64,000 nucleotides of DNA, from NCBI GenBank assembly GCA_016934415.1, contig JAFGSW010000063.1, forward strand, positions 20,043 to 84,042, read 5' to 3'. The notes beneath the pieces are model-generated. The model had not been told where the DNA came from and ran no database searches. It saw only the letters and a program-made list of their open reading frames with translations. A program made the position numbers and the translations under genes. Shown here piece after piece: positions 23,979-55,898 of this stretch (position 1 is its first letter; each line of letters begins with the position of its first letter). Source of the DNA: Spirochaetales bacterium (lineage in GTDB: Bacteria > Spirochaetota > Spirochaetia > SZUA-6 > RPPD01).

Positions 23979-25126
23979 GTCGTCTTCTCCCGGGCGATCA
24001 CGGTCCGTTTCGGCCTCAGAAACCGGTCGATGAGAGGGACGAACATGTTCATGACGATGATCGCCACCGACGCCCCTTCCGGCAAAATGCCGGCGGCGCG
24101 GATCAGGAAGGCGATGAGTCCGACGCCGGCACCAAATACTATTTTCCCCGGGCGGGTGAGAGGTCCCGAAACGTAATCGGTCGCAATAAAGAACGCGCAG
24201 AAGACGATTCCTCCCGAAAAAAGGTGGAAGAGAACGTCGCCTTGGAAAAGGCCCGTCGCGAAGGGAACGCCCCCGAACACCCAGGTGAGAAGCGCGAACG
24301 TCCCCAGCAGCGCCGCAGGGATTTCCCAGGAAATGATCTTCCGCGCCAAAAGCACGGCCGCGCCCACCAGCAGCAGAAAAACGGAAATCTCGCCGATAGA
24401 CCCCGCCGTGTTCCCGAAAAAAAGGTCGAAGTACCCCGGCCTCACGTTCACGCCGAAAAGACCGCCGAGCCATTTGCTCAACTGGCCGTCGAAAGCGGTT
24501 ACCGGGTAATGATGGACGGCCATAAGCGCGGCGGGGCCCCCGAGCGAGCGCAAGGCGGACGCCGCCGCCTCCTGAGAAGCGGCGCCCGCGCCGATCGACG
24601 ACACGGTCGTTTTCACCACGCTTAAGGGTGTGGCGCCGGAGAGGGCGTCGAAGGACGGTCCGGCCCCTTCCGCGATCGTGGCCGGCGCGATCCAGGCGCT
24701 CATGGCCGCCGGAAAGGAAAGCAGCGCGAATACCCGACCCGCCATGGCGGGATTCATCCAGTTGGCGCCCAATCCGCCCGAGGCGTGCTTGACGACGGCC
24801 ACGGCGAACACTGAAGCGCAGAGTGGAACGTAGACGGGCGCGGCCGGCGGCAGGCTCATGCCGATCACGAGGCCGGTAAGGAAGGCGGATCCGTCCCCGA
24901 CCGTCACTTTTCCCCTGATTGCGTTCGCCGCGAGCTCCGTGAGAACGGCGCCCGCCAGGGCCGTCGCCACCACGAGGATCGCGCGCGCGCCGAAAACGGC
25001 CAGGCCCCAGGCGAGCGCGGGGACCAGGCACGCGGAGACCGTCCACATGACGGTCCGGATGCCGGCACCTTCGGCGATATACGGGGCGGAGGCGCTCGTG
25101 ATGGACCGTTTTTCGGATTTCATCAT
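23975..25126 (-). CDS. rnfD: Rnf complex subunit D
   Basis: NqrB/RnfD-type polytopic protein. Start at MMKSEKRSIT overlapping the rnfC stop. Confidence 0.85.
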   Translation of the reverse strand: MMKSEKRSITSASAPYIAEGAGIRTVMWTVSACLVPALAWGLAVFGARAILVVATALAGAVLTELAANAIRGKVTVGDGSAFLTGLVIGMSLPPAAPVYVPLCASVFAVAVVKHASGGLGANWMNPAMAGRVFALLSFPAAMSAWIAPATIAEGAGPSFDALSGATPLSVVKTTVSSIGAGAASQEAAASALRSLGGPAALMAVHHYPVTAFDGQLSKWLGGLFGVNVRPGYFDLFFGNTAGSIGEISVFLLLVGAAVLLARKIISWEIPAALLGTFALLTWVFGGVPFATGLFQGDVLFHLFSGGIVFCAFFIATDYVSGPLTRPGKIVFGAGVGLIAFLIRAAGILPEGASVAIIVMNMFVPLIDRFLRPKRTVIAREKTT

Positions 25127-36660: not shown

Positions 36661-36786
36661 ATAAGGAACCCAGGAAACCAGGCAAAGAATCCTGAGGGAA
36701 AAGAATGAAACATGACGCTGCATATATCTGAGACCGGTTTGTTTTCATATTTTTTGTTTCCTTTCTTGGTTTCCCGGCTTCCTTAT
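36661..36786. repeat. MITE-like element copy B (126 bp)
   Basis: Left ATAAGGAACCCAGGAAACCAGG. Right CTTGGTTTCCCGGCTTCCTTAT, an imperfect reverse complement. The interior contains GAGGGAAAAGAATGAAAC, related to copies E and F. Confidence 0.6.
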
Positions 36787-37161: not shown

Positions 37162-39240
37162 ATGAGCTACGCCACCTCTTCCATCAGGAATATCGCTTTG
37201 TGCGGACACGGGAGCACGGGAAAAACCACGCTCACCGAGCAGCTGCTCGCGACCGGCGGCGCCATTTCCAAGGCGGAGGCGGTCGAATCGGGAAAATCGA
37301 CGAGCGATTTTACCGAAGAGGAAATCGCGAGAAAAATATCGATTCATACCTCGCTTTCGAATCTCGTTTGGAACGGCGTGAAGATCAACGTCCTCGATAC
37401 GCCGGGCGTGGCCGATTTCGTGGGCGAGGCGGTGGCGGCGTACCGGGCCGCCGAGTGCGCCATCGTGCTCGTCGGCGCCGACGTGGGCGTGCAGATCGAA
37501 ACCGTTAAAATCTGGCGGCGCCTTTCCAAAATCCAGTACCCGCGGGTCTTTTTCGTCAACAAGATGGATAAGGAACACGCCGATTTCGAGAAAACATTGG
37601 CCGATCTGAAGGGCAAATTCAACGCCTCCTTCGTCCCCGTCTCCATCCCCATCGGCAAGGGAGCGGGATTCAAGGGCGTCATCGATCTTCTTAAAATGAA
37701 GGCCTCTACTTCGGGCGAAAACGCAAAATCGGCCTCCGAGGATATCCCGGCCGATATGGTTGCGGAGGCCAAAAAATACCGCGACGCGCTCATTGAGGCG
37801 GCGGCCGAGGGCGACGACAAGCTCATCGAAAAATTCTTCGCCACCGGCACCTTGTCGGAAGAAGAGATTCTCACCGGCCTGCGCAAGGCCCTGGCAAACG
37901 GCAGACTTTTTCCTGTGCTCTGCGGCGCGGCGGTGGACAATCGCGGCGTCGCCGCCCTGCTCGACTTCATCGTCACCGCCTGTCCGTCTCCCGGCGGCGA
38001 GGTCAAGGGGTTCGATCTGAAGGGTCAGGAAACCGTTCGCCGCGTCGATTCTTCCGAACCGCTCTCCTGCTTCCTGTTCAAGACCGTCATCGACCAGTTC
38101 TCCGGCCGGATGTCGTTCGTCAAGGTCGTCTCCGGCAAATTGTTGAACGACTGCGACCTCATCAACGTCCGCGGCGAAAAGAAGGAAAAGTCCGGGAAGC
38201 TTCATTCCCTGATCGGGAAAAAACTCACCGACGTCGACGCGCTCGAAACCGGCGACATCGGCGTGCTCCTGAAACTCCAGAGCGTCGCCACCAATGACAC
38301 GCTCTGTACTCCCGATTCACTCGTGAAATACGAGCCGCTCGCCCTGCCCCAGCCCGTTCACGGGGTGGCCATATCCGCGACGTCGAAAAAAGAAGAAGAC
38401 AAACTCAACCAGATGCTTCAGCGCGCCGCCGAAGAGGACCCGACCTTCAAGCTTTCCTTCAACGCTGAAACCAAGGAAACGGTCGTTTCCTGCATGGGCG
38501 AACTCCACCTTTCCATCGTCCTCGACAAGATCAAGGAAAAACAAAAGATCGATATCGAGACGCGCATCCCCAAAGTGGCCTACCGCGAAACCCTGCAGGC
38601 GGCCTCGGGCGCCGAATATACGCACAAGAAACAGACCGGCGGCCACGGCCAGTATGCCAAGGTCGTCCTTGAAATCGCGCCCCTGCAGCGGGGCGAACAG
38701 TTCAAATTCGTCAACGCCATCTTCGGCGGGGCCATTTCGAAAGGCTACGTGGCGGGCGTCGAGAAGGGCGTCATCGAGGGCATGGAACACGGCATTCTCG
38801 CCGGTTACCCGATCGTTGATTTGGAAGCCAAGGTCGTGGACGGCAAGGAACACCCGGTCGATTCGTCGGAAATGGCCTTCAAGCTCGCCGCGCGCGGCGC
38901 GCTCAGGTCCGCCATGGAAAAAGCCAAGCCCGTGCTCCTTGAGCCGGTCATGAACCTCACCGTCTACGTGGACGAGAATTACCTGGGAGACATACTCTCG
39001 GACATTTCCAGCCGGCGCGGCAAGGTGCTCGGCCAGGAGCCGATCGGGGGAGGCATCCTCGAAGTGCGCGCCCAGGTGCCGCAGTCCGAACTTCTTCGCT
39101 ATTCGATCGACCTCAAATCGATCACCTCGGGGACGGCGTCCTTTGAGATTGAATTCGATCACTACAGCCCCATTTCGGGCAAGATTGCCGACGACGTAAT
39201 CAAGGCGGCGCAGGTGGCCAAGGAAGAGGCGAACGCTTAA
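37162..39240 (+). CDS. fusA: Elongation factor G family GTPase (stand-alone paralog, EF-G2-like)
   Basis: G-domain AHGSTGKTT...DTPGVADF...NKMD. 692 aa. AAAGGAG ribosome-binding site. Not located in an str operon context. Confidence 0.85.
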   Translation: MSYATSSIRNIALCGHGSTGKTTLTEQLLATGGAISKAEAVESGKSTSDFTEEEIARKISIHTSLSNLVWNGVKINVLDTPGVADFVGEAVAAYRAAECAIVLVGADVGVQIETVKIWRRLSKIQYPRVFFVNKMDKEHADFEKTLADLKGKFNASFVPVSIPIGKGAGFKGVIDLLKMKASTSGENAKSASEDIPADMVAEAKKYRDALIEAAAEGDDKLIEKFFATGTLSEEEILTGLRKALANGRLFPVLCGAAVDNRGVAALLDFIVTACPSPGGEVKGFDLKGQETVRRVDSSEPLSCFLFKTVIDQFSGRMSFVKVVSGKLLNDCDLINVRGEKKEKSGKLHSLIGKKLTDVDALETGDIGVLLKLQSVATNDTLCTPDSLVKYEPLALPQPVHGVAISATSKKEEDKLNQMLQRAAEEDPTFKLSFNAETKETVVSCMGELHLSIVLDKIKEKQKIDIETRIPKVAYRETLQAASGAEYTHKKQTGGHGQYAKVVLEIAPLQRGEQFKFVNAIFGGAISKGYVAGVEKGVIEGMEHGILAGYPIVDLEAKVVDGKEHPVDSSEMAFKLAARGALRSAMEKAKPVLLEPVMNLTVYVDENYLGDILSDISSRRGKVLGQEPIGGGILEVRAQVPQSELLRYSIDLKSITSGTASFEIEFDHYSPISGKIADDVIKAAQVAKEEANA

Positions 39241-39310
39241 TTCCGGCTCCGCCGGAAATTAAGCGACATGAACAAGCCGTAAGAAAATGGATTGAGTGCC
39301 TATTCAAAAA

Positions 39311-39345
39311 GAGGCCGCCGGTTCCGCCGGCGGTCTCTTTTTTTG
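39311..39345. terminator. Bidirectional rho-independent terminator between the EF-G gene (+) and hypE (-)
   Basis: GAGGCCGCCGG-ttcc-GCCGGCGGTCTC flanked by AAAAAG on the left and TTTTTTT on the right. Confidence 0.75.
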
Positions 39346-39354
39346 ATTCTATCT

Positions 39355-40377
39355 TCAGCAGATGCGCGGCAGCATGTCCGCAACGAGCATGTCGACAATG
39401 CGCGTTCCGCCCGCCTTTGTATTCAAATACACCCGGCTTAAAGGATCGTCGGTGACTGTGCCGATGATGGCCGCGTCCTTGGATGCTGGCCGTGAACCCA
39501 AGTGCGCGAGGATGTCTTCGGCCGTATTTTCCTCACAGACGAGGATGAACTTTCCTTCGTTCGCGAGGTACAACGGATCGTAACCGGTCAATTCGCACAA
39601 TGCCAGCACCTCGTCGCGCACGGGCAGCGCCGATTCGTCGATTTCAATCGAACATGTGGAGGATCGCGCCAACTCAACCAACGTCGTAGCCAATCCGCCG
39701 CGGGTGGGATCGCGCATGAAGCGTACGGCCGGCGGCGGGAACCGTTCGAGGGTTGCGAGAACGACCCCGGACAGGGGCCGGCAATCGCTCTCGATCTCAA
39801 ATGAGACGGGAAAATCGCCCCTGGCCTTCATGATGGCGGCGGCGTGGTCGCCGAGCGTCCCGCTCACGATCACCCGGTCTCCGGGCCGGACGGCGAGAGG
39901 CGAAAGCGCGGCTCTGAATTCGCACGTGCCGATCCCGCTCGTGTTGACGAACAGGCCGTCGGCTTTTCCCCGCGGCACGACCTTGGTGTCCCCCGTGACG
40001 ATCGCCACGCCGGCCTCGTCCGCCGCGATCTTCATCGAGCGGACGATCGCAGCCATATCTTTGAGGGGAAATCCGTCCTCGATGACGAAGGCGGCGCTCA
40101 AGTACCTGGGCCGGGCGCCGGCGACGGCGAGGTCATTGACCGTGCCCGACACGGCGAGCCGTCCGATGTCTCCTCCCGGGAAAAACAGCGGCTGCACCAC
40201 GTACGAATCGGTCGTGAAGGCCAATCCGTATTCGTGCGCGGGCAGAATGGCGCTGTCAAGCAAAGCCTCGAGGAAACGATTGTCGAGCGCCGGCAGAAAC
40301 GTCTTTTCGATGAGATCATGCATGGCCTTCCCGCCGTTGCCGTGGGCGAGGGTGATCGTCTTGCCTTTGGATGTCAT
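39355..40377 (-). CDS. hypE: Hydrogenase maturation protein HypE
   Basis: N-terminus MTSKGKTITLAHGNGGKAMHDLIEK. AIR-synthase-like fold. C-terminus ...PRIC with the conserved terminal cysteine. Confidence 0.9.
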   Translation of the reverse strand: MTSKGKTITLAHGNGGKAMHDLIEKTFLPALDNRFLEALLDSAILPAHEYGLAFTTDSYVVQPLFFPGGDIGRLAVSGTVNDLAVAGARPRYLSAAFVIEDGFPLKDMAAIVRSMKIAADEAGVAIVTGDTKVVPRGKADGLFVNTSGIGTCEFRAALSPLAVRPGDRVIVSGTLGDHAAAIMKARGDFPVSFEIESDCRPLSGVVLATLERFPPPAVRFMRDPTRGGLATTLVELARSSTCSIEIDESALPVRDEVLALCELTGYDPLYLANEGKFILVCEENTAEDILAHLGSRPASKDAAIIGTVTDDPLSRVYLNTKAGGTRIVDMLVADMLPRIC

Positions 40378-40406
40378 TTATCTTTTCACCTTCAGTTAAT
40401 AATTCT

Positions 40407-40623
40407 AAAAGGAAACCAGGAAAAATTACAGTGAAAATAAACACTCCTCATCATGACCCAACGAACCATATTTTCAGGAAGCTCAGAGCAGAAATAATGA
40501 AAATAAATTATCTACAAAATGGTCAACTGAATTTTAACATAAATAGTTATTGTTTTTTCAAATTTTTCTGAACGTCTTTTCGTTTTCATATTTTTCTTTT
40601 TTCCTGGATTCCTGGTTTCCTTA
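40407..40623. repeat. MITE-like element copy C (217 bp)
   Basis: Left AAAAGGAAACCAGGAAAAA. Right TTTTCCTGGATTCCTGGTTTCCTTAT. AT-rich interior that shares GTTTTCATATTTTT with copy B. Confidence 0.65.
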
Positions 40624-40642
40624 TTATTTCCTTTTGAGAGAA

Positions 40643-41563
40643 TTACGTCCCCTCGATCACCACCAGACCGCCCAGGCGGCGCGGATCGAGGTTCACTGTT
40701 TTAACGAGTTTGGCCATGGCCTCTCTGGGAAAGGACGCATCTCGAACGAATTCACTTCCAATCTGCCAAAAGGCTTTTTCCTGTTCCAGCCAGCGAACGA
40801 CGGCGCAGAAAACCATTTTCTTCCCGATTCCGCCGACAGCGTCGACTTGGACGCTGATGATCCCGCCCTGCTCCAGGCTGTCGCGACTCAAGAGAAGCAA
40901 TTTTGCGCCCTCCGTGGATATGTCGATCAGGTATCCATCGATTGAATTATTCACGACCGCCTTGGTGAAAATGCTGTGCCGTTGGAGCCGCCGTAGGTAC
41001 ATTCCGGACTCGACGGGTTTCACTTCCGCCTCGTTCCCGACTTTCGTCATTCTCTTGGCGGCGGTAATTCGCGTGCCGGCCACGCTCCCCCCGCCCTTCC
41101 ACGCGCACTCTTTTCCTTCCCGGTCGATGAAGACGAGATGAAAGGCGTCGAGGGCGATTTTGGCCGAAAGGAGGCCGATTCCGAACCGGTTGAAGCCGTG
41201 GCGTTCGCGATATTCCTGAAATTTAAGACTCGTAAAGTCCGGTTTTTTCGATTCGTCGTTGATGTCGATCGGAAGGGTTGAGAGATCGAATCCGCCCCCG
41301 AAATCCGTCACGATGATCTTCAGGAAATTTCCGGAAACCATGAGGTCGACCGATACTTCCTTGTCGATCTTCCGCTCATGGAGGGCGCGCAGGGAATTGG
41401 TCACGAGCTCGGTAAGGGCGTACCGCAGGATGATATTATCGGATTCCTTGACCGGGAAATCGATGAGCTCGAGTATTTTAAAAAAATCCGAGCCGTTCAG
41501 TTTGGGCGAAAAATGAATGAACAATTCCGTGTAGCAGTTGCCCTTGTAGACGATGTAGTTCAT
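40643..41563 (-). CDS. Fusion protein: GHKL/HATPase_c (anti-sigma-factor/serine-kinase-like) N-domain plus PilZ c-di-GMP-binding C-domain
   Basis: N-domain ...ILRYALTELVTNSLRALHERK...IIVTDFGGGFD. C-domain RRLQRHSIFTKAVVNNSIDGYLIDISTEGAKLLL (PilZ RxxxR ... D/NxSxxG). GGGAG ribosome-binding site. Sits between hypD and hypE. Confidence 0.65.
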   Translation of the reverse strand: MNYIVYKGNCYTELFIHFSPKLNGSDFFKILELIDFPVKESDNIILRYALTELVTNSLRALHERKIDKEVSVDLMVSGNFLKIIVTDFGGGFDLSTLPIDINDESKKPDFTSLKFQEYRERHGFNRFGIGLLSAKIALDAFHLVFIDREGKECAWKGGGSVAGTRITAAKRMTKVGNEAEVKPVESGMYLRRLQRHSIFTKAVVNNSIDGYLIDISTEGAKLLLLSRDSLEQGGIISVQVDAVGGIGKKMVFCAVVRWLEQEKAFWQIGSEFVRDASFPREAMAKLVKTVNLDPRRLGGLVVIEGT

Positions 41564-41700
41564 ATGGCTCCCATAGAATTATATCCATTCTTCAAAAAAT
41601 AAAAAGATCATATTTCATAAAACCTTCGGGAGTCTTTTCCGGGAGACGGCCTCTCGCGCCGGCTCGATCGATCCCGGAAACGCGAACGATGATTCGTTTC

Positions 41701-42792
41701 TCAGGCGTCCCGATACGAGTAATGGATGCCGCAGGCGCCCTCGGCGCTCACCATGCAGGCCCCGAGGGGATTGTCCGGCCGGCAGGTCCGCGCGAACAGA
41801 GGGCAGGCGGGCGGGTCGATCGTCCCCCGCATCACGTCTCCGCACCGGCAGCCCGGGTATTCACGGGGCGGCGGAAGCTCCACCGGGAATCTTCGGTCGG
41901 CGTCAAATCGCGTGTAATCGACCTTGAGCTCCAGGCCCGAACCGGGGATGTTTCCCAGCCCCCGCCAGACCGCGTCCGCAGGAACAAACACGCGCTCCAT
42001 GACACCCCTGGCGGCCGGGTTTCCCTCCCGTCCCACGACGCGCGTGTATTCGTTCTCAACCTCTCCCCGTTTTTCCCTCACCTGGCGCAGGAGCATGAGG
42101 ATGGAGCGCAGCATGTCGGTGGGCTCGAAGCCCGAGACGACGCACGGCACGTGAAATTCGTCCGCGAGGGGCTCGTAGATACGGCCGCCGGCGACGGCCG
42201 TGACGTGGCCCGGACAGATGAAACCGTCGATACGGACGGTCGGGCTCTCGAGCAGGGCGCGCATGGCCGCGGGCATGGTTTTGAGGGCGGTGAGCAGGCT
42301 GAAATTGCGGAGTCCCCGTTCCTCTGCTTCGATCACTGCCGCGGCCGCGGTTGGAGCGGTGGTCTCGAATCCGATGCCGAGAAACACGACCTCCCGCTCC
42401 GGGTTCGCTTGGGCGAACGCCACCGCTTCGAGTGGCGAGAGACATATCCGGATGTCGGCCCCCCTCGCCTTGGCCTCAAGCAGCGAACCGTCCGTCCCCG
42501 GCACGCGCAGCATGTCGCCGAAGGTGGCGACGACGATGCCGGGTCGGGCGGTGAGGGCGAGAGCGGTATCAATGTACCGTTGCGGTGTGACGCACACGGG
42601 ACAGCCGGGGCCGCTCTTCAAGCTCAGCCCCTCGGGGAGAAGCTTCGCGAGTCCGTACTTGAGGGCAGTAAGGGTATGGCCGCCGCAGATTTCCATGAAG
42701 GCGAGCTCTTGCTTCGGCATGAGGCTGCGGATGTCGGCCGCCAGGGCGCGCGATCCGGCCGCGCTGCGAAATTCCTCCATGTACCGGATCAT
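41701..42792 (-). CDS. hypD: Hydrogenase maturation protein HypD
   Basis: Start at MIRYMEEFRS. Motifs GPGCPVCV, CPGHVTAV, FEPTD. Fe-S C-terminus. Confidence 0.9.
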   Translation of the reverse strand: MIRYMEEFRSAAGSRALAADIRSLMPKQELAFMEICGGHTLTALKYGLAKLLPEGLSLKSGPGCPVCVTPQRYIDTALALTARPGIVVATFGDMLRVPGTDGSLLEAKARGADIRICLSPLEAVAFAQANPEREVVFLGIGFETTAPTAAAAVIEAEERGLRNFSLLTALKTMPAAMRALLESPTVRIDGFICPGHVTAVAGGRIYEPLADEFHVPCVVSGFEPTDMLRSILMLLRQVREKRGEVENEYTRVVGREGNPAARGVMERVFVPADAVWRGLGNIPGSGLELKVDYTRFDADRRFPVELPPPREYPGCRCGDVMRGTIDPPACPLFARTCRPDNPLGACMVSAEGACGIHYSYRDA

Positions 42793-43025
42793 TCGTTTTT
42801 CGCCTTCCCTTCGGCCTCCTCGATTTCCCGGAAGAGACGGATCGATTCGGCGGCGTCCTCCTGATCGAGTTTCTGGATGGCGAAACCGGCGTGTACAATG
42901 ACGTAGTCTCCCGGGACTATATCGGGTAGCAATCGGAAGCTCACTTCGTACGTCACACCGCCCGCCTCGACGACGCCCTTGTCGCTTTCTATCGTTTTGA
43001 CTTCCATGGGAATGGCCAGACACAT
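42789..43025 (-). CDS. hypC: Hydrogenase maturation protein HypC
   Basis: Internal start MCLAIPMEV.... 78 aa. Confidence 0.85.
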   Translation of the reverse strand: MCLAIPMEVKTIESDKGVVEAGGVTYEVSFRLLPDIVPGDYVIVHAGFAIQKLDQEDAAESIRLFREIEEAEGKAKNE

Positions 43026-43038
43026 ATCGAAATACCCC

Positions 43039-45363
43039 CTATCCCACGTTTTCCGCGGCCACGACCGCCTGTCCAAGGGCCAACCCTCCGTCATTGCAGG
43101 GCACCCGCTCGTGAACAATCGGTTTCAGGCCGTTATGCTCGATCCTCAGTGCCAGACCTTCGAGCAGGGTCATGTTCATGAAACAACCGCCGCTCAAGAC
43201 GACGTCTTTCAAACCCGTTTTCCGGGCGACGGTTGATACCGTTGAGGCGAGAACGTCCGCCAGACCACGGTGGAATTTCCCCGAGATAGTCGCGGACGAC
43301 GTTCGCTTTCTGGCGTCCATTGCCGCGGACAGAACGACGCCCCGCCAGTCGATGACAATGCCGTCCGATTTTTCTTCGATCGAAAAACGATATCCGTTTT
43401 CATCGCCGGATCCATTTCCCGCAAACGCCTGTTCGAACTCGATCGCCGGCTGGCCCTCGTAGCGGGCTTCGAGGCAGACGCCGGAAATGGCCGACATGGC
43501 GTCGAAGAGTCGGCCGCAACTCGACGTGACCGGCAGCGATAACGATGATTCCAGCTGGGCGGCTGTCACCGCCAGCTTTTGTTCGGGGATACCGGAAAGC
43601 GACGGCGGTAACACGTCCCGCCAGCCGTTTCCGCACGCCTCCCTGAGACAGGCCGCCGCCATGCGCCACGGTTCGCGAACGGCAAGATCCCCGCCCGGCA
43701 TAGCGACGGTTCCCAAATGCGCCCGGCGCTCGAAACGGGCGCGGTCGGCGACGAGTATCTCCCCGCCCCAGACGGTGCCGTCCGTTCCCAGGCCCGTCCC
43801 GTCGAGCGCCACGCCGATGACGGGCCCCCGCAGGCCCCGCTCGGCCATGCAGCTCGCAATATGCGCGTGATGGTGCTGGACCGGGAATTTGAGGGCCGCC
43901 GCCGCCCATTCGAAATCCGGGGGTGGATCGAGCGCGAACTGCGTCGAAAGGTACTGCGGGTGCAGGTCGTGCGCGATGAGCGACGGGGTCACGTCAAGAA
44001 GGGCGAGGAAATGGCGGATCGCATCCAGAAACGCCCGGTAGGTTTCGCGGTCCTTGAGGTCGCCGACGTGCTGACTTAAGAATGCCGAATCGCCGTGGGC
44101 GAGGCAGACGGTGTTTTTCAACTCGGCGCCCACGGCCAGCACCGGGCGCTTGAGCGCAGTCCGCATCACGACCGGGGAGGGCGTGAAGCCCCTCGCCCGC
44201 CTGATCGGGTAATCGCCTCCCCGGAACAGCCGGACGACCGAATCGTCGGCTCTGGTCTGGATGTCCCGGTCACCCTGGAGAAAATAATCGCATATGGGTG
44301 AAAGCCTGTGCAGCGCCTCGTCGTTCCGGCAGGCTATCGGTTCGTCGGAAAAATTGGCGCTGGTCATGACGAGCGGAACGTCGATTCGCGAGAAGAGGAG
44401 GTGCTGGAGCGGCGTGTAGGGGAGCATGAGTCCGAGTGTCGACGATCGGGGGGCGACCGCCTCCGCCAGCCCATGCCCTGGTTTTTTCGGCAGGAGCATG
44501 ATCGGGGCGTCGACGTCGAGAAGGCGCCGTTCCTCGGTTTCCCCGAGCTCGACGAGCCGCCGCGCCGACTCAATGTCCCTCACCATCACCGCCAAAGGCT
44601 TCTCCTCGCGGCGCTTGCGCCAACGAAGGGCGGCGACCGTTTTTTCGTCGTCGGCCCGGCAGGCGATATGAAATCCGCCCAGACCCTTGACCGCGATAAT
44701 GGCGCCGCCGGAAAGCATGGCTGCGGTCCTTTCGATGAGGTCTTTAACCGATGAGGAATCGACGCCGCGGACGATCGTCACGCCGTTGCGGTCGCAGAGA
44801 CTGACATGCGGTCCGCAAACGTGGCAGGCATTGGGCTGGGCGTGGAAGCGCCGGTCGGCCGGGTCGCTGTATTCGCGCTCGCATTCGGGGCACATGGGGA
44901 ACGAAGACATCGTCGTATTGGCCCGGTCGTATGGAATGTCCCGAACGATGGTGAAACGGGGGCCGCAATTGGTGCAGTTGATGTAAGGATAGAAAAACCG
45001 CCTGTCGCGCGGATCAAATAGCTCCCTTCGGCAATCGGGGCAGAGGGCGAGGTCGCGTGAAATCCTGACGATCCGGACGTCGTCCGCGCGGCTCTCCTCG
45101 ATGGTGAACCCGTCAAAGACGGGCGGATTTTCGACCGTGACGCTCTCCACGGATTCCACCCTGCTCTGCGGCGGCGGAGTCTCCCGGACGGCCCGCTCCA
45201 GGGCGGCCACGGCCTCCTCCGTCCCCTGGGCGAGGATCTCGACGCAGCGCGTGGTGTTGGCGACGGTCCCCATGATCCCCAGACCCGCCGCCCGGTTGTA
45301 GACGAAGGGCCTGAAGCCCACTCCCTGAACGACTCCTTTGACGATAATGCGCTTGGTGATCAT
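43039..45363 (-). CDS. hypF: Carbamoyltransferase HypF
   Basis: Start at MITKRIIVKGVVQGVGFRPF (acylphosphatase domain), an ATGA overlap with the hypB stop. Two zinc-finger pairs, YrdC and Kae1-like domains. The 212-aa ORF-track N-terminal extension is arginine-rich and probably spurious. Confidence 0.9.
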   Translation of the reverse strand: MITKRIIVKGVVQGVGFRPFVYNRAAGLGIMGTVANTTRCVEILAQGTEEAVAALERAVRETPPPQSRVESVESVTVENPPVFDGFTIEESRADDVRIVRISRDLALCPDCRRELFDPRDRRFFYPYINCTNCGPRFTIVRDIPYDRANTTMSSFPMCPECEREYSDPADRRFHAQPNACHVCGPHVSLCDRNGVTIVRGVDSSSVKDLIERTAAMLSGGAIIAVKGLGGFHIACRADDEKTVAALRWRKRREEKPLAVMVRDIESARRLVELGETEERRLLDVDAPIMLLPKKPGHGLAEAVAPRSSTLGLMLPYTPLQHLLFSRIDVPLVMTSANFSDEPIACRNDEALHRLSPICDYFLQGDRDIQTRADDSVVRLFRGGDYPIRRARGFTPSPVVMRTALKRPVLAVGAELKNTVCLAHGDSAFLSQHVGDLKDRETYRAFLDAIRHFLALLDVTPSLIAHDLHPQYLSTQFALDPPPDFEWAAAALKFPVQHHHAHIASCMAERGLRGPVIGVALDGTGLGTDGTVWGGEILVADRARFERRAHLGTVAMPGGDLAVREPWRMAAACLREACGNGWRDVLPPSLSGIPEQKLAVTAAQLESSLSLPVTSSCGRLFDAMSAISGVCLEARYEGQPAIEFEQAFAGNGSGDENGYRFSIEEKSDGIVIDWRGVVLSAAMDARKRTSSATISGKFHRGLADVLASTVSTVARKTGLKDVVLSGGCFMNMTLLEGLALRIEHNGLKPIVHERVPCNDGGLALGQAVVAAENVG

Positions 45364-46043
45364 GGCCGCGAATTCACAGTATACGGCATTGACCGCCTCC
45401 GTCCAAGCAGCCATTCTGCGAACCGCTCGGTCCCCTCTCCCGAGACGGCCGAACATTCGAAGACGGGCACCTCGGCGTTGACGGCGCTGATATTGTCCCG
45501 GTAGCGTTCCAGGCTCACCGGCAGGTGCGGGATGAGATCGGTCTTGGCGATCACCGCCGCGATCGCCTCCCGGAAAAGGAGCGGGTACTTGAGCGGCTTG
45601 TCCTCGCCTTCGGTGACGCTCAAGACCGCAATCTTTCCGTTTTCGCCGATGTCGAATTCCGCCGGGCAGACGAGGTTGCCGACATTTTCCACGAACACGC
45701 AGACGCCTTCGCCCGCCTCCGGGAGAGGGAGATCTTCCAGGGCTTGAAAGACCGTCTTCGCTCCCAGGTGGCAGGCGCCGTGGGTGAGGATCTGAACGGC
45801 GGGTATGTGGAGCGCCAGGAGCCGGTCGGCGTCCCGGGTGGTTTCCACGTCCCCCTCGAGCACGAAACAAGACAGCCGTTCGCGGAGAAACGGGATGAGA
45901 CGTTCGAGAAGGGCGGTTTTCCCCGAGCCTGGCGAACCGATGATGTTCCACATCACCGCGCGTTTCTCTGCCAGGAAAGCCCTGGTCCGGGCCGCCCATT
46001 CCTCGTTCGCGCTGAGTACGTTCTTATATACCTTCAGGTTCAT
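45360..46043 (-). CDS. hypB: Hydrogenase nickel-incorporation GTPase HypB
   Basis: P-loop GSPGSGKT. ENVGNLVCP motif. Start chosen at MNLKVYKNVL. Confidence 0.85.
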   Translation of the reverse strand: MNLKVYKNVLSANEEWAARTRAFLAEKRAVMWNIIGSPGSGKTALLERLIPFLRERLSCFVLEGDVETTRDADRLLALHIPAVQILTHGACHLGAKTVFQALEDLPLPEAGEGVCVFVENVGNLVCPAEFDIGENGKIAVLSVTEGEDKPLKYPLLFREAIAAVIAKTDLIPHLPVSLERYRDNISAVNAEVPVFECSAVSGEGTERFAEWLLGRRRSMPYTVNSRP

Positions 46044-46407
46044 CGTCCGCAATCTCCATGTCCTCGATATACAGTTCATTGCCCGAGATCGTTTCCACCG
46101 CTCCCCGTCCGCAGCGGCCGCACAGAAAGAACGGCGCCTCGATCTCCCCTTCCCAGCCGCAGGTACGGCAGTGGACGGCGAGTGGAATTTTCTTCAATTC
46201 CAGAGCCGCTCCCTCGAACGCCGTACCAGGGGTGAGCGCTTCCCAGGCGAGAAGAAAGCTCTCCGTCACGATCTGGTGGATCTGCCCCATCACGATTCGC
46301 ACTCTGATGACGCGCGCCGCCCGGGAGCCTTTTTTCCCGGCTTGGGACCTTTCGTACTCGGCGGCAAGCGTCTTGAGCATCGATTCGCACATGGAAAGCT
46401 CATGCAT
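46024..46407 (-). CDS. hypA: Hydrogenase nickel-insertion protein HypA
   Basis: MHELSMCES N-terminus and two CxxC pairs (CRTCG ... CGRCG). Confidence 0.85.
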   Translation of the reverse strand: MHELSMCESMLKTLAAEYERSQAGKKGSRAARVIRVRIVMGQIHQIVTESFLLAWEALTPGTAFEGAALELKKIPLAVHCRTCGWEGEIEAPFFLCGRCGRGAVETISGNELYIEDMEIADDEPEGI

Positions 46408-46879
46408 CACCCGCGACCTTTTTCACCAACCCGGTTTCGGACGCGATCTCCTTCAGATACTCGTCAAAACGGCATTCGAGCGAGGCTGACAAGCCGCGGC
46501 CCAATTCGATCCGTTCCGGCTCGATCCCGAAAAAAACGATTTCCGGCGGCCCCGAGCCCACGCGTCCCGCGACATTGACGATCTCGAAGACGTCGCCCTC
46601 GTGCAAGCTCATGTGCCGCAGGACCTTCTTCGAACGGGCTTCGTCGCGAGTGAATTTGATTATCGTTCCCGGTTTTTCGCCCATGAGCGCGCAGTCGATG
46701 ATGACGGCCTTGGCTTTGTTTTCAAGCACGTGCACCACATTGAAAAGGGACGTGCCGAGGTCATACACCTCGACGCCCGAGCAATCATAGCGGCGCTCAA
46801 GCTCTTCGGCCAGCCGCCCGCCGATGCCCTCGTCCCCGGCAAGCGGGTTTCCCAGACCGACGACGGCTATTTCTGCCAT
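46400..46879 (-). CDS. [NiFe]-hydrogenase maturation endopeptidase (HyaD/HybD/HycI family)
   Basis: Internal start MAEIAVVGLGNPLAGDEGIG.... About 159 aa. The ORF-track N-terminal extension runs into the hairpin element. Confidence 0.8.
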   Translation of the reverse strand: MAEIAVVGLGNPLAGDEGIGGRLAEELERRYDCSGVEVYDLGTSLFNVVHVLENKAKAVIIDCALMGEKPGTIIKFTRDEARSKKVLRHMSLHEGDVFEIVNVAGRVGSGPPEIVFFGIEPERIELGRGLSASLECRFDEYLKEIASETGLVKKVAGDA

Positions 46880-46891
46880 ATGCTCATCACT

Positions 46892-47034
46892 CCCGTAAAA
46901 AACAGCCACAGAGGCACTGAGGACACAGAGAGGAAAAGAAAATGAGGAAAGAAAATTTCCAATAAATTCTCCTTCCTTTCTTTTTATCATTTTCTTTTTG
47001 TCTTCTCTGTGCTCTCTGTGTCTCCGTGGCTGTC
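46892..47034. repeat. Long imperfect inverted-repeat hairpin element (copy E) between hydA and the maturation protease
   Basis: Arms ACAGCCACAGAGGCACTGAGGACACAGAGAGGAAAAGAAAATGAGGAAAG and CTTTCCTTTCTTTTTATCATTTTCTTTTTGTCTTCTCTGTGCTCTCTGTGTCTCCGTGGCTGT, centred on AATTTCCAATAAATTCT. Confidence 0.55.
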
Positions 47035-47085: not shown

Positions 47086-48381
47086 TCACACGAACTCGAC
47101 ATCCAGATAATGCGTGGAGCAGGAGATGCAGGGGTCGTACGCGCGGACAAGCATCTCCATGAGGAGCCTGATTTCGTCCTGCGGCTTGTCGATGATCTTC
47201 GGCACCAGGGATTCGAAGTCTTTCTGAATGTTCCCGTGATTCTGGCCGGTGGGGATGCAGATATTGGCCGACGTGCACATTCCCTTGCCGTCGAATGCAT
47301 AGCGGTGGAAAAGAATGCCGCGCGGAGCCTCCACGCTTCCCACCCCCTCGCCTTCGCGCGGCGCGGCCTTGGGCGTCTCCGGCGTGACGCCGTCGGTAAG
47401 GACGCCGTCGATGAGCCGGATCGAATGGGCGATGACCTGGGCGATCTCCACGACCTGGGCCACGCTGTTGAGGTAGGGGTTGCAGGCGCCCTTTTGAAGG
47501 CCGAACTTCGCCGCCACGGCCTTGGCCTCGGGAAGGAGGAGATCGGCATTGATATTGTACCGGGCGAGGGCGCCCACGGCGTATGAGTCCCTGTGCCACT
47601 TGCACCACTTGGCCGTCGATTGGGCGGAAACGTACTCATTCGCCACCGATTCGAACTTATGAACGTCGGTGGTCTCCTTGACGTCGGTGGAGGCGATGTC
47701 TCCGTGGTAGAAGGTGTATGTTCCGTCCGTTTTCAGCGCGACATATTCGGTATCACGGTTGAAATCCGGAAGCTTGTCCGCCAGGCTCACGACCACATCC
47801 GCCAGAATCCCGACCAGCTTCATGCCGTTCTCGAGATCTTTTTTATAAGCCTTCAATTGCGCTTCCGTGGGGAGCTTGGCGAACCCGCCGGGCTTGACGG
47901 TCACCGGGTGCGTCATCCGCCCTCCGATGAGCTCCATGCCGGCGTTGCCGAGCTTGTGCAGTGCTATGACGGTCTTCACCACGTCCGGATGCGATGCCAC
48001 GAGCGGAACGACGGATTTCTGGCCCAGGAGATCGGGCGCCACCAGGTAACCGACGTGCAGGACGTGACTTTCGATCTGCTCGGCGTAGTGCAGAACGATG
48101 CGAAGCGCGTCGGTCTGCTTCGAGACGGTGACGCCGATGGCGTCCTCCACGGCCTTGATGGCGGCGAGCGAGTGGGTCACGGAGCAGATGCCGCAGATGC
48201 GTGAGACGATGGTCTGGATGTCTTCGTAACTCCGCCCCCGCACCATGGCTTCGAAGAAGCGCGGAGCCTCCGGCACCCGCCACTCCACCCGTTCTATCTT
48301 CCCGTCGGAGGCGCGCACGCGGATCGTGCCGTGGCCCTCCACCCGGGTGACATGGTGTACGCTTACATCAATATTCGGCAT
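47086..48381 (-). CDS. hydA: [NiFe]-hydrogenase large (alpha) subunit, group 3b-like
   Basis: N-terminal RICGIC and C-terminal DPCISCSTH Ni-Fe ligand motifs. 431 aa. Confidence 0.9.
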   Translation of the reverse strand: MPNIDVSVHHVTRVEGHGTIRVRASDGKIERVEWRVPEAPRFFEAMVRGRSYEDIQTIVSRICGICSVTHSLAAIKAVEDAIGVTVSKQTDALRIVLHYAEQIESHVLHVGYLVAPDLLGQKSVVPLVASHPDVVKTVIALHKLGNAGMELIGGRMTHPVTVKPGGFAKLPTEAQLKAYKKDLENGMKLVGILADVVVSLADKLPDFNRDTEYVALKTDGTYTFYHGDIASTDVKETTDVHKFESVANEYVSAQSTAKWCKWHRDSYAVGALARYNINADLLLPEAKAVAAKFGLQKGACNPYLNSVAQVVEIAQVIAHSIRLIDGVLTDGVTPETPKAAPREGEGVGSVEAPRGILFHRYAFDGKGMCTSANICIPTGQNHGNIQKDFESLVPKIIDKPQDEIRLLMEMLVRAYDPCISCSTHYLDVEFV

Positions 48382-48392
48382 CGGATCGCTCC

Positions 48393-49127
48393 TTACGATT
48401 GATTGTTGAACAAGAGCAGGCGGCCCGACAGATCGTCGACCGTCTTGCCGTAGATGTCCATGACTTCCTTGGCGGCGTCAACGTTCGGGTTGTCGAGCAG
48501 TCCCCGGCAGCCGAAGCACCAGAACCCGCCCGTCGGGCACTTGGCGCCGCAGCCGGCGCGCGTAATCGGGCCGAGGCAGACTTCGTTGTACTCGTAGCGG
48601 CAGATGTTGCCTTTTTTCTTGCATTCCACGCACACGGGATAATTCGGTATCGAAGGCGTTTTCCCGGCGAGCACGCTCTTCAGGATGGTGCCGAACTCGA
48701 AATGATCGATCGGGCAGCCGTGAATCTTCACTTCCACGGGCACGACCTCGTGGACCGCCTTGACCCGGGCGGTGTCCAGGTGCGGGGCTTCCGCGTCCTT
48801 GCCGTACACCGTGCGGCGCACCTCACCGAAATCGAACTGGTTTTTGAGCTTGTTCACCCCGCCGATGGTCGCGCAGGCGCCGAGGGCGATCATCACTTTG
48901 GCCCTTTTCCGGATGTCCTTGAGGCGCTCCTCGTCCTCTTTTCTCGTGATTGAGCCCTCGATGACGGCAATGTCGTAGCTGTCGGACTGGTCGCTTATGG
49001 CCTCGCGCCATTCGACCGGCTCGATGAGCCCGAGGACGTCAAGGAGGCCTTCCTCCAGATTATAGAGCTGGAGCTGGCAGCCCTCGCAGCAGGCGAAATC
49101 GAATATGGCGACGCGCGGTCTGTCCAT
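48393..49127 (-). CDS. hydD: [NiFe]-hydrogenase small (delta) subunit
   Basis: Internal start MDRPRVAIFDFACCEGCQ (proximal-cluster motif). ATGA overlap with hydG. Confidence 0.85.
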   Translation of the reverse strand: MDRPRVAIFDFACCEGCQLQLYNLEEGLLDVLGLIEPVEWREAISDQSDSYDIAVIEGSITRKEDEERLKDIRKRAKVMIALGACATIGGVNKLKNQFDFGEVRRTVYGKDAEAPHLDTARVKAVHEVVPVEVKIHGCPIDHFEFGTILKSVLAGKTPSIPNYPVCVECKKKGNICRYEYNEVCLGPITRAGCGAKCPTGGFWCFGCRGLLDNPNVDAAKEVMDIYGKTVDDLSGRLLLFNNQS

Positions 49128-49963
49128 CAAATGGCCTCCCTCGTTTCGGCGATATCGGAGTAGCGGAACACCGGACCGTCCTGGCAGGCGTACAGGCCGT
49201 TGATCTGGCAGTGGCCGCATTTGCCCACCCCGCACTTCATCTTGCGCTCGAGCGACACGTACACGTTCGCATAACTCATCTCCAATTTGCGGAGCTCGAG
49301 CAGGGCGAATTTATACATGACCGGCGGTCCGACGATGAGGGCGACGGTGTTCTTCGGATCGAAGGATATTTTGGAGAACAGCGTGGTGATGACGCCGACG
49401 TTCCCCTTCCAGCCGTCGTCCGGCTGATCGACCGTTTCCAGAAGCCGGACCCCGTCGACTTTGCCCCACTGTTCGAGCTCGTCCGAAAAGAGCCTGAACG
49501 CCGGGGTGCGGGTTCCGGAGAGAATGTGGATTTTCCCGTACTCTTTCCTGTGGGACAGCACGTACTTGATGGCCGAGCGGAGCGGGATCATGCCGATGCC
49601 GGCGCAGACGAAAAGGATATCCTTCCCTTTCATTGCCGTCGTGACCGGGAACGTGGTGCCGTAAGGCCCGCGCACGCCGATCTTATCGCCGACGGAGAGC
49701 CGGTGGAGGGCGCCGGTGAGGCTCCCCACCTGCCGGATGCCCATTTCGAACGTCGGTTCGCCGTGCGGAGGCGAGGAGATCGAGATGGGCGCCTCGCCGA
49801 TGCCGAAAAGCGAAATTTCTGCGAACTGTCCCGGCATGTGGCCGAGCGATTTTCCCGAATCAAGCTTGAACTCGAAACATTTCTCGGTCGGGGTGAGCTG
49901 GCGGATGGCGACCGCGGTGGCCGTCTCGGGAAGGTAGATGTCCTTCAATGCGATCTTTCCCAT
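49127..49963 (-). CDS. hydG: Hydrogenase gamma subunit (FAD/NAD(P)-binding, 2Fe-2S; AsrB/PyrK-like)
   Basis: Ferredoxin-reductase-type FAD/NAD fold. C-terminal CGVGKCGHC cluster motif. Confidence 0.85.
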   Translation of the reverse strand: MGKIALKDIYLPETATAVAIRQLTPTEKCFEFKLDSGKSLGHMPGQFAEISLFGIGEAPISISSPPHGEPTFEMGIRQVGSLTGALHRLSVGDKIGVRGPYGTTFPVTTAMKGKDILFVCAGIGMIPLRSAIKYVLSHRKEYGKIHILSGTRTPAFRLFSDELEQWGKVDGVRLLETVDQPDDGWKGNVGVITTLFSKISFDPKNTVALIVGPPVMYKFALLELRKLEMSYANVYVSLERKMKCGVGKCGHCQINGLYACQDGPVFRYSDIAETREAI

Positions 49964-49966
49964 GTG

Positions 49967-50983
49967 TCAGGCCTCCATGATGGCGTTGTAGACTTCCACC
50001 GGATTGGCGATGTGCGTTACGCACGCGCCGATGCAGCGCCCGCAGCCCACGCACGAAAACTCTCCGATCTTGTCCGGCACGTATTTCCCCTTGCGGTAAT
50101 AGCGGTGTCGGTAGCGCGCCTCTCGCTGATTCCGGAAATTATGGGGGCCGGCCACGGTGGCGAAATCCTCGAGCATGCAGCCGTCCCAGGTGCGCACACG
50201 CTCGCCGGATGCAAGGTCCCAGTTCAACCTGTCCGCCACGTCGAAGCAGTAGCAGGTGGGACAGACCAGGTTGCAGCTGCCGCATGAGAAGCAGAGGCGC
50301 GCCTTTTCCTTCCATATTTTGTGATCGTATGATTTTTCAAGCTGCGCGGTTATCTGCGCCTTGTTCGGCTTGAGCTCGTGCCTGCGCAGAGCTTGTTTGT
50401 TTTCGTCCCAGATTTTTTTCCGCGCGGCCAGGTGCGTATCGTCCGCTTTTGTGAATCCCTTGCCCAAGGCGATAAGTTTTTCGCCGGCGGCCGTGGCCGC
50501 GTCGGCGAGATACTCGTTTCCGATTTTGGTAAGAAGTATGTCGTAGGAATCCTCAACATGCTCGAAGCCGAGGCAGCCGGCGAAAACGTGAGCCGACGGT
50601 TTCTGCACGTCGACCGCGACGACGATCGCCTTGGCCCGCCGGGAAAGGTAGTGAACGTCCGGGTTGTCCATCTCGAAGAGTTTGTCAAGTTGACGGAGGG
50701 CGATAAGATCGTACGGGTGAACGCCGAAAAGGACGAACGGCTCAGCCGCCTGGGCGCTCTTCGCCTCGTCCTTCTTGAAAGTGAAAAGCTTTTCGTCAGG
50801 CAACAGGAAAAACCTCTTGGGAGCGTTCAGGCTGACGTCGTAGTCGAGCCGCAGGTCTTGAACCTTTGCAAGCGGCCCGAAATCGAACTTGTCGGCGCGG
50901 GCCTGAATCCCGATCACGTCGTGGGCTTTGATGATCGCCTCGACCCATGTTCCGAGCTCGGCCGTGTCAAGGACTTTGAGCAT
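49967..50983 (-). CDS. hydB: Hydrogenase beta subunit (AsrA-like iron-sulfur protein)
   Basis: Cysteine motifs CFSCGSCNLVCPTCYC and CVGCGRCIGAC. 338 aa. Confidence 0.85.
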   Translation of the reverse strand: MLKVLDTAELGTWVEAIIKAHDVIGIQARADKFDFGPLAKVQDLRLDYDVSLNAPKRFFLLPDEKLFTFKKDEAKSAQAAEPFVLFGVHPYDLIALRQLDKLFEMDNPDVHYLSRRAKAIVVAVDVQKPSAHVFAGCLGFEHVEDSYDILLTKIGNEYLADAATAAGEKLIALGKGFTKADDTHLAARKKIWDENKQALRRHELKPNKAQITAQLEKSYDHKIWKEKARLCFSCGSCNLVCPTCYCFDVADRLNWDLASGERVRTWDGCMLEDFATVAGPHNFRNQREARYRHRYYRKGKYVPDKIGEFSCVGCGRCIGACVTHIANPVEVYNAIMEA

Positions 50984-51351
50984 TTCTCACCTCCCCGTCC
51001 GGCTGTCGTAACAGCGCAGTATCGGCGCGTATTCCATCACAGCCGTCACTGTATGTGCTTTGCGACCGCACCGGCTTAAGACCGCATCGTTTCGCAGAGT
51101 TGTCATCCCTGTCAGGATAAGGCTGTGAAAAAAGCACTGGCTCCTTAAGGGCCGGACGCGCAACCACAAGCTTTATGAAAGTTTTGCCCCACCCGGACCA
51201 GATCGTGTTGCCCGTAATATATACGGATTAATTGAACGTGTCAAATATTCGCGGTTTTCTTGTCACAGTCGGCCTGTCCGTGATAGTGTGTGATCGCTTT
51301 CAATCCGATGGTGCGGCGCGGCCTCGAATAATGCCGCCGAAAGGGGAACGC

Positions 51352-52952: not shown

Positions 52953-53619
52953 CCCGCTCCTCGAAGGTCCGGTAAACGGCTTCATGCGGCCTTCGGCGCA
53001 CGTCGCCGTAGGTGTAATATTCAGCCCGGGCGGTCCACTCACCGCGCGCATTGAATTTCAGATATTTATATTCAATGAAAAAAGCGAGACCGCCGTCGGG
53101 ATTGCGGACGGAAATCGACTCAAGATTGCCGGCATCGTCGTAGGCGTACGTTTTCCTGAAGACGAGGCGACCGTCGGCCCCTCCCTGCCTGGTTTCCTCG
53201 AGACGTCCCGATCGCGAATACTTTTTTTGGTTGACGAAGAGAACGCCGCCGTCCGGCAGGACGGCCGTTTCGGTCTCGAGGTCGCCCTCGCGCTCGAGGG
53301 TCACCGTCCGGCGCAGCGTTCCTTCCGGACCAAAGACGGAAAGGATGCGTTTCCCCTTGCCGTACCGGTAGACCGTTTTTTCAAGGACGTCGCCCTTTCC
53401 CCCCGCGAGCACCTCTTCGGCCGGGCGGCCTTCCCGGTCGAACGTCAGGGTGATGCGTTTGATCGTCTGGCCGACGCCCCACACCCTTTTCTTCGCGTTC
53501 CAGTGGTACACTTTCACCGTGGAGACGATTTTCCCGCGGCCGGAAGCCTCCGCGTAGGCTCCCGCGCAGGCGAGAAAGGCGAAACCGATGAAAATCGCCC
53601 TGTCGATCCGTCTATTCAT
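52936..53619 (-). CDS. Short secreted YD/RHS-repeat-like protein
   Basis: Signal peptide. YD-repeat-like motifs (RLVFRKTYAYDDAGNLESISVRNPDGG, RYGKGKRILSVFGPEG). Confidence 0.5.
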   Translation of the reverse strand: MNRRIDRAIFIGFAFLACAGAYAEASGRGKIVSTVKVYHWNAKKRVWGVGQTIKRITLTFDREGRPAEEVLAGGKGDVLEKTVYRYGKGKRILSVFGPEGTLRRTVTLEREGDLETETAVLPDGGVLFVNQKKYSRSGRLEETRQGGADGRLVFRKTYAYDDAGNLESISVRNPDGGLAFFIEYKYLKFNARGEWTARAEYYTYGDVRRRPHEAVYRTFEERDEKLL

Positions 53620-55734: not shown

Positions 55735-55898
55735 GGAAACCAGGAAGAAAGAATCCAGGTAAAGGAAAGCAAAAATAGAGAGAACGAACCGAAGTTTTCC
55801 TTTTTCGGTTTGTATCTGTTTTTTTACCGCATGGATTTTCCTTCTCTTATTTTTTCTCATCTCTCTTTCCTGCTTTCCTTTCCTCCTGGCTTCCTCAT
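55731..55898. repeat. MITE-like element copy D (168 bp)
   Basis: Left ATAAGGAAACCAGGAAGAAAGAATCCAGG starts at the MscS stop codon. Right CCTGGCTTCCTCAT. Polypurine / polypyrimidine halves. Confidence 0.6.

Follow-up and report, generated by a model that had tools for sequence, protein, structure and literature searches.

Among the 64,000 nucleotides of Spirochaetales DNA considered here (contig JAFGSW010000063.1 of assembly GCA_016934415.1; 'the window' always means this whole 64-kb stretch) lies a cluster of genes for the maturation of a [NiFe] hydrogenase, and between two of them, hypD and hypE, sits a further gene, here called X, that encodes a fusion of a GHKL domain to a PilZ domain. X stands directly upstream of hypE in every lineage in which enough flanking DNA could be read, and its architecture suggests a kinase of the partner-switching type placed under the control of cyclic di-GMP (c-di-GMP). 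In the direction of transcription, the locus holds the following genes and features:

47086-50986, minus strand: four-subunit sulfhydrogenase-type (group 3b-like) [NiFe] hydrogenase, assigned with NCBIfam and Pfam (alpha 47086-48381, delta 48393-49130, gamma 49127-49966, beta 49967-50986)
46400-46990, minus strand: HycI-type hydrogenase maturation protease (PF01750)
46024-46410, minus strand: hypA (PF01155)
45360-46079, minus strand: hypB (cobW/HypB; open reading frame as listed, the true start possibly further downstream)
43039-45363, minus strand: hypF (Acylphosphatase, zf-HYPF, Sua5 and HypF_C domains)
42789-43025, minus strand: hypC (PF01455)
41701-42792, minus strand: hypD, the upstream neighbour of X (PF01924, 474 bits; 363-aa form)
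40643-41563, minus strand: gene X, a 306-aa RsbW/SpoIIAB-type GHKL and PilZ fusion, stop codon within the coordinates
40397-40626, no strand: X-hypE spacer, rich in AT and flanked by the inverted repeat AAGGAAACCAGGAA / TTCCTGGTTTCCTT; a member of an intergenic repeat family
39355-40377, minus strand: hypE, immediately downstream of X (TIGR02124, 430 bits; AIRS/AIRS_C)
39306-39342, no strand: GC-rich hairpin with a 17-bp stem and T-runs on both sides, between the convergent hypE and EF-G genes

The initial annotation, made from the sequence alone, had placed X between hypD and hypE in a hydrogenase maturation cluster, and the matches of the two flanking genes to PF01924 and TIGR02124 confirm that position. 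The subunits of the adjacent hydrogenase find their best or near-best NCBIfam matches in ShyA/HydA, HydD/ShyD, HydG/ShyC and ShyB/HydB, all below the equivalog cut-offs, with PRK08345 and sulfite_red_B outscoring the Shy/Hyd match for the gamma subunit; their gene order is the same in two of the related loci described below (L001 and L004). Spacers of 137 bp and 265 bp separate X from hypD and hypE, respectively, and a GGGAG ribosome-binding site lies 5 nt 5' of its ATG. The hairpin beyond hypE is likely to be a bidirectional terminator that closes the hyp transcript, and the minus strand from hypD to hypE showed no site resembling a terminator; on both counts, X is probably co-transcribed with hypE. 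A scan of positions 39200-42000 for sigma-70 promoters returned sites no more numerous than in shuffled sequence, and an Rfam scan of 39000-43500 (E ≤ 1) gave sub-threshold noise and no riboswitch, c-di-GMP types included.

The product of X is identical to MBN2353180.1, a protein from a metagenome-assembled genome (MAG) that NCBI names 'PilZ domain-containing protein [Spirochaetales bacterium]'. The GHKL and PilZ fusion exists as the initial annotation described it, and the motifs quoted there were located by translation. Its parts are as follows:

41039-41563, minus strand: GHKL (Bergerat-fold) domain, N-terminal, residues 1-175
41396-41410, minus strand: N box ELVTN, E52xxxN56
41291-41305, minus strand: G1 box DFGGG, D87xGxG91
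41171-41188, minus strand: G2 box RFGIGL, R126-F-G-x-G-L131
40979-41038, minus strand: interdomain linker, predicted to be disordered, residues 176-195, with RxxxR at its end
40979-40993, minus strand: RxxxR motif RRLQR, R191-R195, in the loop ahead of PilZ strand 1
40688-40978, minus strand: PilZ beta-barrel and C-terminal helix, residues 196-292
40907-40924, minus strand: (D/N)xSxxG motif DISTEG, D214-G219, at the end of strand 2
40646-40687, minus strand: C-terminal tail, residues 293-306, with a near-invariant strand GLVVIEG(T/S) at its end

The PilZ half is the more readily recognised of the two. Pfam matches PilZ (PF07238) at residues 205-275 with 26.5 bits against a gathering score of 22.5, the fold is that of a six-stranded beta-barrel followed by a C-terminal helix, and the RxxxR motif aligns with RRKEPR of VCA0042 as DISTEG does with DLSRSG of VCA0042 and NISAGG of MotI, such that the PilZ assignment stands on both profile and motifs. 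An AlphaFold2 model built on an alignment of 15 orthologues (predicted local distance difference test score, pLDDT, 83.5; predicted template modelling score, pTM, 0.81) contains two folded domains joined by a disordered linker (pLDDT <50 at residues 176-193), with residues 301-305 at the C-terminus forming a beta-strand. SpoIIAB, RsbW, UsfX and SiaB are the best structural matches of the GHKL domain, which is structurally nearer to these anti-sigma kinases than to the CA domains of histidine kinases and is not accompanied by a DHp/HisKA domain: Pfam gives no match to a HisKA-type domain, and the model shows GHKL and PilZ domains only. At the level of sequence the kinship is more remote. A single-sequence search of PDB sequences returned a weak RsbW match amid noise and a profile search was needed, in which the N and G1 boxes of X align with those of RsbW; against NCBIfam, X gives weak matches with RsbW and SpoIIAB on top (TIGR01924, 18.3 bits against a cut-off of 155; TIGR01925, 17.4 against 135). 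By these sequence scores X is a distant relative of RsbW/SpoIIAB and not an orthologue. No N-terminal PilZN/xPilZ barrel was found, the N-terminal domain being GHKL and the matches to YcgR, MotI and VCA0042 covering the PilZ half only; searches with Pfam and NCBIfam returned no homology to the Hyp families (HypA-F, HycI), leaving operon position as the sole tie to the Hyp proteins, and PADLOC gave no match to a defence system. As judged from sequence and model, X is an ATP-binding GHKL domain of the anti-sigma/serine-kinase structural class, followed by an RxxxR linker and a canonical PilZ barrel.

Both predicted nucleotide-binding sites are strongly conserved. Across 15 full-length orthologues (37-100% identity), no substitution occurs at E52, N56, D87, G91, R126, F127, G128, G130, L131, G163, T164, R195, S216 or G219, and position 214 is always D or N. 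The set E52/N56, D87..G91, G128/G130, R195, D/N214, S216 and G219 is conserved among 15-19 relatives, and the conserved core is present in more distant fused relatives as well; because it survives even there, at 20-35% identity, the nucleotide-binding motifs of both halves are, by sequence comparison, under purifying selection. In the C-terminal tail, which has no counterpart in PilZ proteins encoded apart from the GHKL domain, V301, I303 and G305 are invariant within the clade of X genes linked to hyp genes. An earlier supposition that the GLVVIEG strand is exclusive to that clade holds in part only, as a hydrophobic strand, though a less conserved one, occupies that place in other fused clades.

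To place X in its wider context, loci were scanned with narrow peptide patterns, which yielded at least six genome loci and at least four metagenome loci, and nine independent Spirochaetia lineages with usable flanks were compared. Arranged by identity to the X of the window, these are the window itself, L001/L018 (86%), L019 (66%), L028 (55%), L016/L017/L029 (47%), L002/L003/L020 (43%), L021 (39%), L022 (39%) and L004/L005/L023/L031 (37%). X lies immediately upstream of hypE and on the same strand in all nine, with a gap of 0-46 nt in six, and the order is hypD-X-hypE in eight. The ninth, the 47% lineage, has an eight-repeat ankyrin gene upstream of X where hypD would stand (L016 27-920; L017/L029 3-896) and a ribosomal S12/S7/EF-Tu operon after hypE: here the hyp cluster is broken up and the X-hypE pair is intact. 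The genes downstream of hypE vary elsewhere too, with EF-G in some lineages, the S12 operon in another and an esterase in another. Orthologues never found near hydrogenase genes would have refuted the initial annotation; instead, all orthologues with enough flanking DNA are tied to hydrogenase-maturation genes and directly upstream of hypE. Pairwise identities of X (86/66/48/43/38%) run alongside those of HypE (85/63/53/53/53%), in at least four deep lineages X has diverged in step with HypD, HypE and HypF, and the position of X is kept where HypD and HypE identity falls to 53-57%. Since its divergence tracks that of the Hyp proteins, comparison of the sequences indicates that X has been vertically co-inherited with hypE across deep divergence. 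One gene caller reports a 111-aa open reading frame (ORF) without a Pfam match in the 438-bp hypD-X gap of the 43% lineage (L002/L003 9552-9887), and there is no counterpart in the 137-bp gap of the window.

The base composition of X is at first sight that of an outsider, its GC content being ~52% against 64-67% in the adjoining hyp genes and falling to 35-45% in the spacers either side (40300-40750, 41350-41650). Horizontal insertion was nevertheless set aside as the main story, as GC at third codon positions (0.70) is near that of the neighbours (0.73-0.78) and divergence tracks that of the Hyp proteins; the contrast appears to reflect mainly amino-acid composition, and recent horizontal transfer is not clearly indicated.

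A gene for a candidate c-di-GMP enzyme has also entered the hyp cluster. In L004/L005/L023 and in L021, hypB and hypF have a GAF-GGDEF-EAL gene of 661-672 aa between them on the opposite strand; L022 and L007 carry this gene directly upstream of hypF, where the contig ends ahead of any hypB. The encoded enzyme bears SGDEF and ECL motifs, and its GAF domain could respond to a signal related to redox state or H2. The window holds a possible relative at its left edge, where the initial annotation had reported an EAL protein that is indeed real:

3-257, plus strand: EAL-domain protein fragment, the C-terminal 85 residues, cut by the window edge (frame +3 translation)

Over 80 aa the fragment shares 66% identity with the L021 GAF-GGDEF-EAL protein. 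As the Hyp proteins of these two genomes are less similar, at 47-57% identity, it is plausible that the fragment, short as it is, is an orthologue of the enzyme found in hyp clusters, and possible that this protein, encoded ~40 kb from the hyp cluster, serves as a dedicated c-di-GMP enzyme for X. Other nucleotide-signalling genes of the window encode a protein with two cyclic nucleotide (cNMP)-binding domains (9266-10462, plus strand) and a CHASE2-sensor adenylate/guanylate cyclase (61125-63521, minus strand).

Beyond the hyp-linked clade the two halves of X occur both together and apart. A profile search of 1.84 billion representative proteins recovered 138 relatives at E ≤ 1e-3, among them ~8 fused proteins, ~70 stand-alone GHKL proteins (~175 aa) and ~25 stand-alone PilZ proteins (~115 aa). 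The nearest stand-alone GHKL homologues share ~38% identity with the N-terminal half of X, and each of their genes is followed by an overlapping PilZ gene (113-127 aa, with DISxxG). That the family exists both as adjacent genes and as a fusion argues, from gene arrangement, that the GHKL and PilZ halves work together. The split loci lie away from hyp genes and are rich in other c-di-GMP-related genes (DUF1577-PilZ, ComFB). Two such pairs (L008 8001-10162, L011 7644-9823) stand beside genes for DUF1577 (PilZN-GAZ-PilZ), a PocR-AraC regulator, a B12-binding protein, HD_assoc_2 and ComFB, a recently described family of cyclic dinucleotide (c-di-NMP) receptors (PMC12448109); on domain content these neighbourhoods are a dense cluster of second-messenger effectors. 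A link to partner switching is also found here. One split locus carries, in order, genes for a GHKL protein, a PilZ-like protein, a STAS protein and a second RsbW-like kinase, and each of the fused relatives P0102, P0165 and P0164 adjoins a divergently transcribed STAS gene, in loci that also hold REC-GGDEF and/or REC-HD-GYP genes. By analogy, these contexts support a c-di-GMP-gated partner-switching kinase, and together with the structural matches to SpoIIAB, RsbW, UsfX and SiaB they lend weight to the anti-sigma or partner-switching style of action that had been proposed initially.

The same relatives, being split or STAS-linked and situated away from hyp genes, would also suit a protein whose output has nothing to do with hydrogenase: X might be a general c-di-GMP effector, of motility or matrix for example, for which the hyp location is convenient co-expression or accident. 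The linkage is known from only some nine lineages, all of one class (Spirochaetia), and the copy in the window has gained its 137-bp and 265-bp spacers and may thereby have some transcriptional autonomy. Chance or convenience would, however, have to account for a position held while HypD and HypE are only 53-57% identical, for an X-hypE linkage that persists through rearrangement on both sides, for the abutment of the two genes within 0-46 nt in six lineages, and for a GGDEF-EAL gene that independently joined the same cluster in one subclade. We consider such a general effector improbable.

The reading that we prefer, and to which we give about even credence on the strength of sequence, model and analogy, is that X is a c-di-GMP-gated switch kinase of the RsbW/SpoIIAB type which acts via a partner, with hyp or hydrogenase output then set by c-di-GMP. 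The RxxxR arm of X sits in a flexible interdomain linker, which is the geometry of the YcgR-, MotI- and PlzD-type effectors. As in YcgR and MotI types, c-di-GMP would bind between the RxxxR linker and the PilZ barrel, clamping the one to the other; binding would re-dock the PilZ domain and the C-terminal strand (residues 301-305) on the GHKL domain, and re-docking would in turn alter how X binds or phosphorylates a partner protein in an ATP-dependent manner. The STAS-linked relatives suggest, by analogy, that this partner is most likely a STAS-type antagonist, or a sigma-like or other regulatory protein, whose gene lies elsewhere in the genome. In this way the level of c-di-GMP, itself probably set by the dedicated GAF-GGDEF-EAL enzyme, would determine how far the sulfhydrogenase-type [NiFe] hydrogenase and its maturation system are expressed or active. 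Binding of c-di-GMP, kinase activity and an effect on the hydrogenase are all steps that we infer from sequence, predicted structure and synteny.

Several observations weigh against this reading, and some of them would favour one or other rival. The first concern the protein itself. In Pfam, HATPase_c_2 scores 22.3 bits against a gathering score of 27.4, and HATPase_c on residues 42-142 is marginal (26.2 bits against 26.4), both falling just under their thresholds. R191 of the RxxxR motif is kept in only 12 of the 15 orthologues, the other three having N, S or K, and most orthologues have DxAxG in place of DxGxG as the G1 box. X could on these grounds be a degenerate adaptor or scaffold, its PilZ domain non-binding, like the type II PilZ adaptors, or its GHKL domain a pseudo-kinase. 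Set against that, the nucleotide-binding residues of both domains are invariant or nearly so among relatives of 20-100% identity, and the motifs are in register with those of proven binders (VCA0042, MotI), for which reason we hold degeneracy to be very unlikely.

The remaining difficulties concern the partner and the target. The partner-switching output is borrowed from relatives of only 26-40% identity. The STAS partner that the initial annotation had suggested seeking did not appear: a six-frame hmmsearch with a profile built from the relatives found no STAS domain, either across the 64 kb of the window or in any hyp-linked locus, and genes for STAS, PP2C or sigma factors were likewise not found in the window or, at the hyp-linked loci, up to 10 kb from X. 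Pfam scans of the window ORFs, which cover only 64 kb of the genome, returned neither a STAS nor a sigma-factor gene. Synteny, for its part, shows co-inheritance and probable co-transcription and is not proof of an output on hydrogenase, and the hyp-linked clade is small, composed of uncultured organisms only and confined to a single class, its named sources all being Spirochaetales, Spirochaetaceae or Spirochaetia MAGs.

The want of a nearby STAS gene and a linkage specific to hypE speak for a rival in which X acts directly on the maturation machinery, binding or phosphorylating HypE, another Hyp protein or a hydrogenase subunit post-translationally; X, in its c-di-GMP-loaded or c-di-GMP-free form, would then gate cyanide-ligand synthesis or cofactor insertion with neither a STAS nor a sigma partner. 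To our knowledge, however, no Hyp protein has a STAS-like fold or known phospho-regulation, and a C-terminal strand at the position of that of X is also present in other fused clades and may be an intramolecular latch. Direct action therefore strikes us as rather unlikely, if somewhat less so than a general effector. Its most far-reaching form, that c-di-GMP directly gates the assembly of the [NiFe] active site, with X as a ligand-controlled Hyp accessory factor that switches HypE and the supply of cyanide ligands through ATP and c-di-GMP and is fed by the GAF-GGDEF-EAL enzyme of the cluster, is improbable; if true, it would be the first known second-messenger checkpoint on metallocofactor biosynthesis.

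A fusion of PilZ to a kinase would place a partner-switching kinase directly under c-di-GMP control, a wiring for which no description was found, and the strictly conserved placement upstream of hypE, with a GGDEF-EAL gene in the hyp cluster of one subclade, offers a testable link from c-di-GMP to [NiFe]-hydrogenase maturation or H2/redox metabolism. Such a link would extend the control exerted by c-di-GMP beyond motility and matrix to fermentative redox balancing in anaerobic spirochaetes. At 306 aa, X is moreover a small and tractable model for the regulation of a GHKL ATPase by PilZ.

Other features of the window stand apart from these questions. The X-hypE spacer belongs to a family of inverted-repeat pairs, ATAAGGAA[A/T/C]CCAGGAAA ... 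TTTCCTGG[T/A]TTCCTTAT, each placed around an AT-rich intergenic spacer of 100-220 bp:

19541-19699: repeat pair
36665-36774: repeat pair
40397-40626: repeat pair (the X-hypE spacer)
53186-53197: lone copy
55735-55878: repeat pair

The core motif has 12 matches in the window against 0.4 expected, and the sequences inside the pairs are unrelated between copies; from its form, the family could be an element resembling miniature inverted-repeat transposable elements or repetitive extragenic palindromes (MITE/REP-like) or a pair of sites bound by a protein. L001, the 86% relative, has the X-hypE copy too; more distant loci and those in which X abuts hypE lack it. On the minus strand at ~21947-26481, a run of ORFs resembles by eye an Rnf-type membrane complex, with an RnfC-like ORF of 452 aa at 25123-26481 and small polytopic RnfA/E-like ORFs; if real, it would sit well with the sulfhydrogenase-type enzyme in a redox economy of ferredoxin, NAD(P)H and H2. 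A 1147-aa ribonucleotide reductase of class II (B12-dependent), with a TSCPD domain at its C-terminus, is encoded at 12679-16122 (minus strand).

Taken singly, PilZ receptors and RsbW-type switch kinases are well understood. Their combination in one protein is not mentioned in a survey of PilZ domain architectures (bioRxiv 10.1101/814665) or in a 2026 inventory of the c-di-GMP genes of Leptospira (PMC12943098), and text searches of the open-access literature found no description of the GHKL-PilZ architecture or of c-di-GMP control of hyp genes, in keeping with the initial annotation, which had not recognised a described regulator class; members of the X family go under the public names 'ATP-binding protein', 'PilZ domain-containing protein' and 'anti-sigma regulatory factor'. 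Compared with the partner-switching anti-sigma serine kinases RsbW, SpoIIAB and UsfX, X differs in its covalently fused PilZ domain and an extra N-terminal beta segment of ~40 residues, scores far under the equivalog cut-offs (18 bits against 135-155), and resides in a hyp operon, with no neighbouring STAS or sigma gene, rather than in a sigma-factor operon. Pseudomonas aeruginosa has, in SiaB-SiaC-SiaD, an RsbW-like kinase that governs a diguanylate cyclase by way of a phospho-switch protein; the kinase SiaB thus stands ahead of c-di-GMP synthesis and lacks a receptor domain for c-di-GMP, whereas its PilZ domain would put X downstream of synthesis or in a feedback loop, and no SiaC-like gene was seen near X. 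YcgR, MotI (DgrA), PlzD (VCA0042) and PlzA carry an N-terminal PilZN/xPilZ barrel and direct their output to the flagellar motor or to nucleic acid, where X has an ATP-binding GHKL domain. CckA (PDB 5idm) binds c-di-GMP on the CA domain itself, in a DHp-containing histidine kinase, while in X, which lacks a DHp domain, the receptor is a PilZ domain of its own. RsiG is like X in concept, with c-di-GMP controlling an anti-sigma-type protein, but it is helical, binds c-di-GMP via E(X)3S(X)2R(X)3Q(X)3D repeats, contains neither GHKL nor PilZ, and is not homologous to X. Beside these systems, X is a new architecture in a new conserved context, built from known signalling modules rather than constituting a categorically new mechanism.

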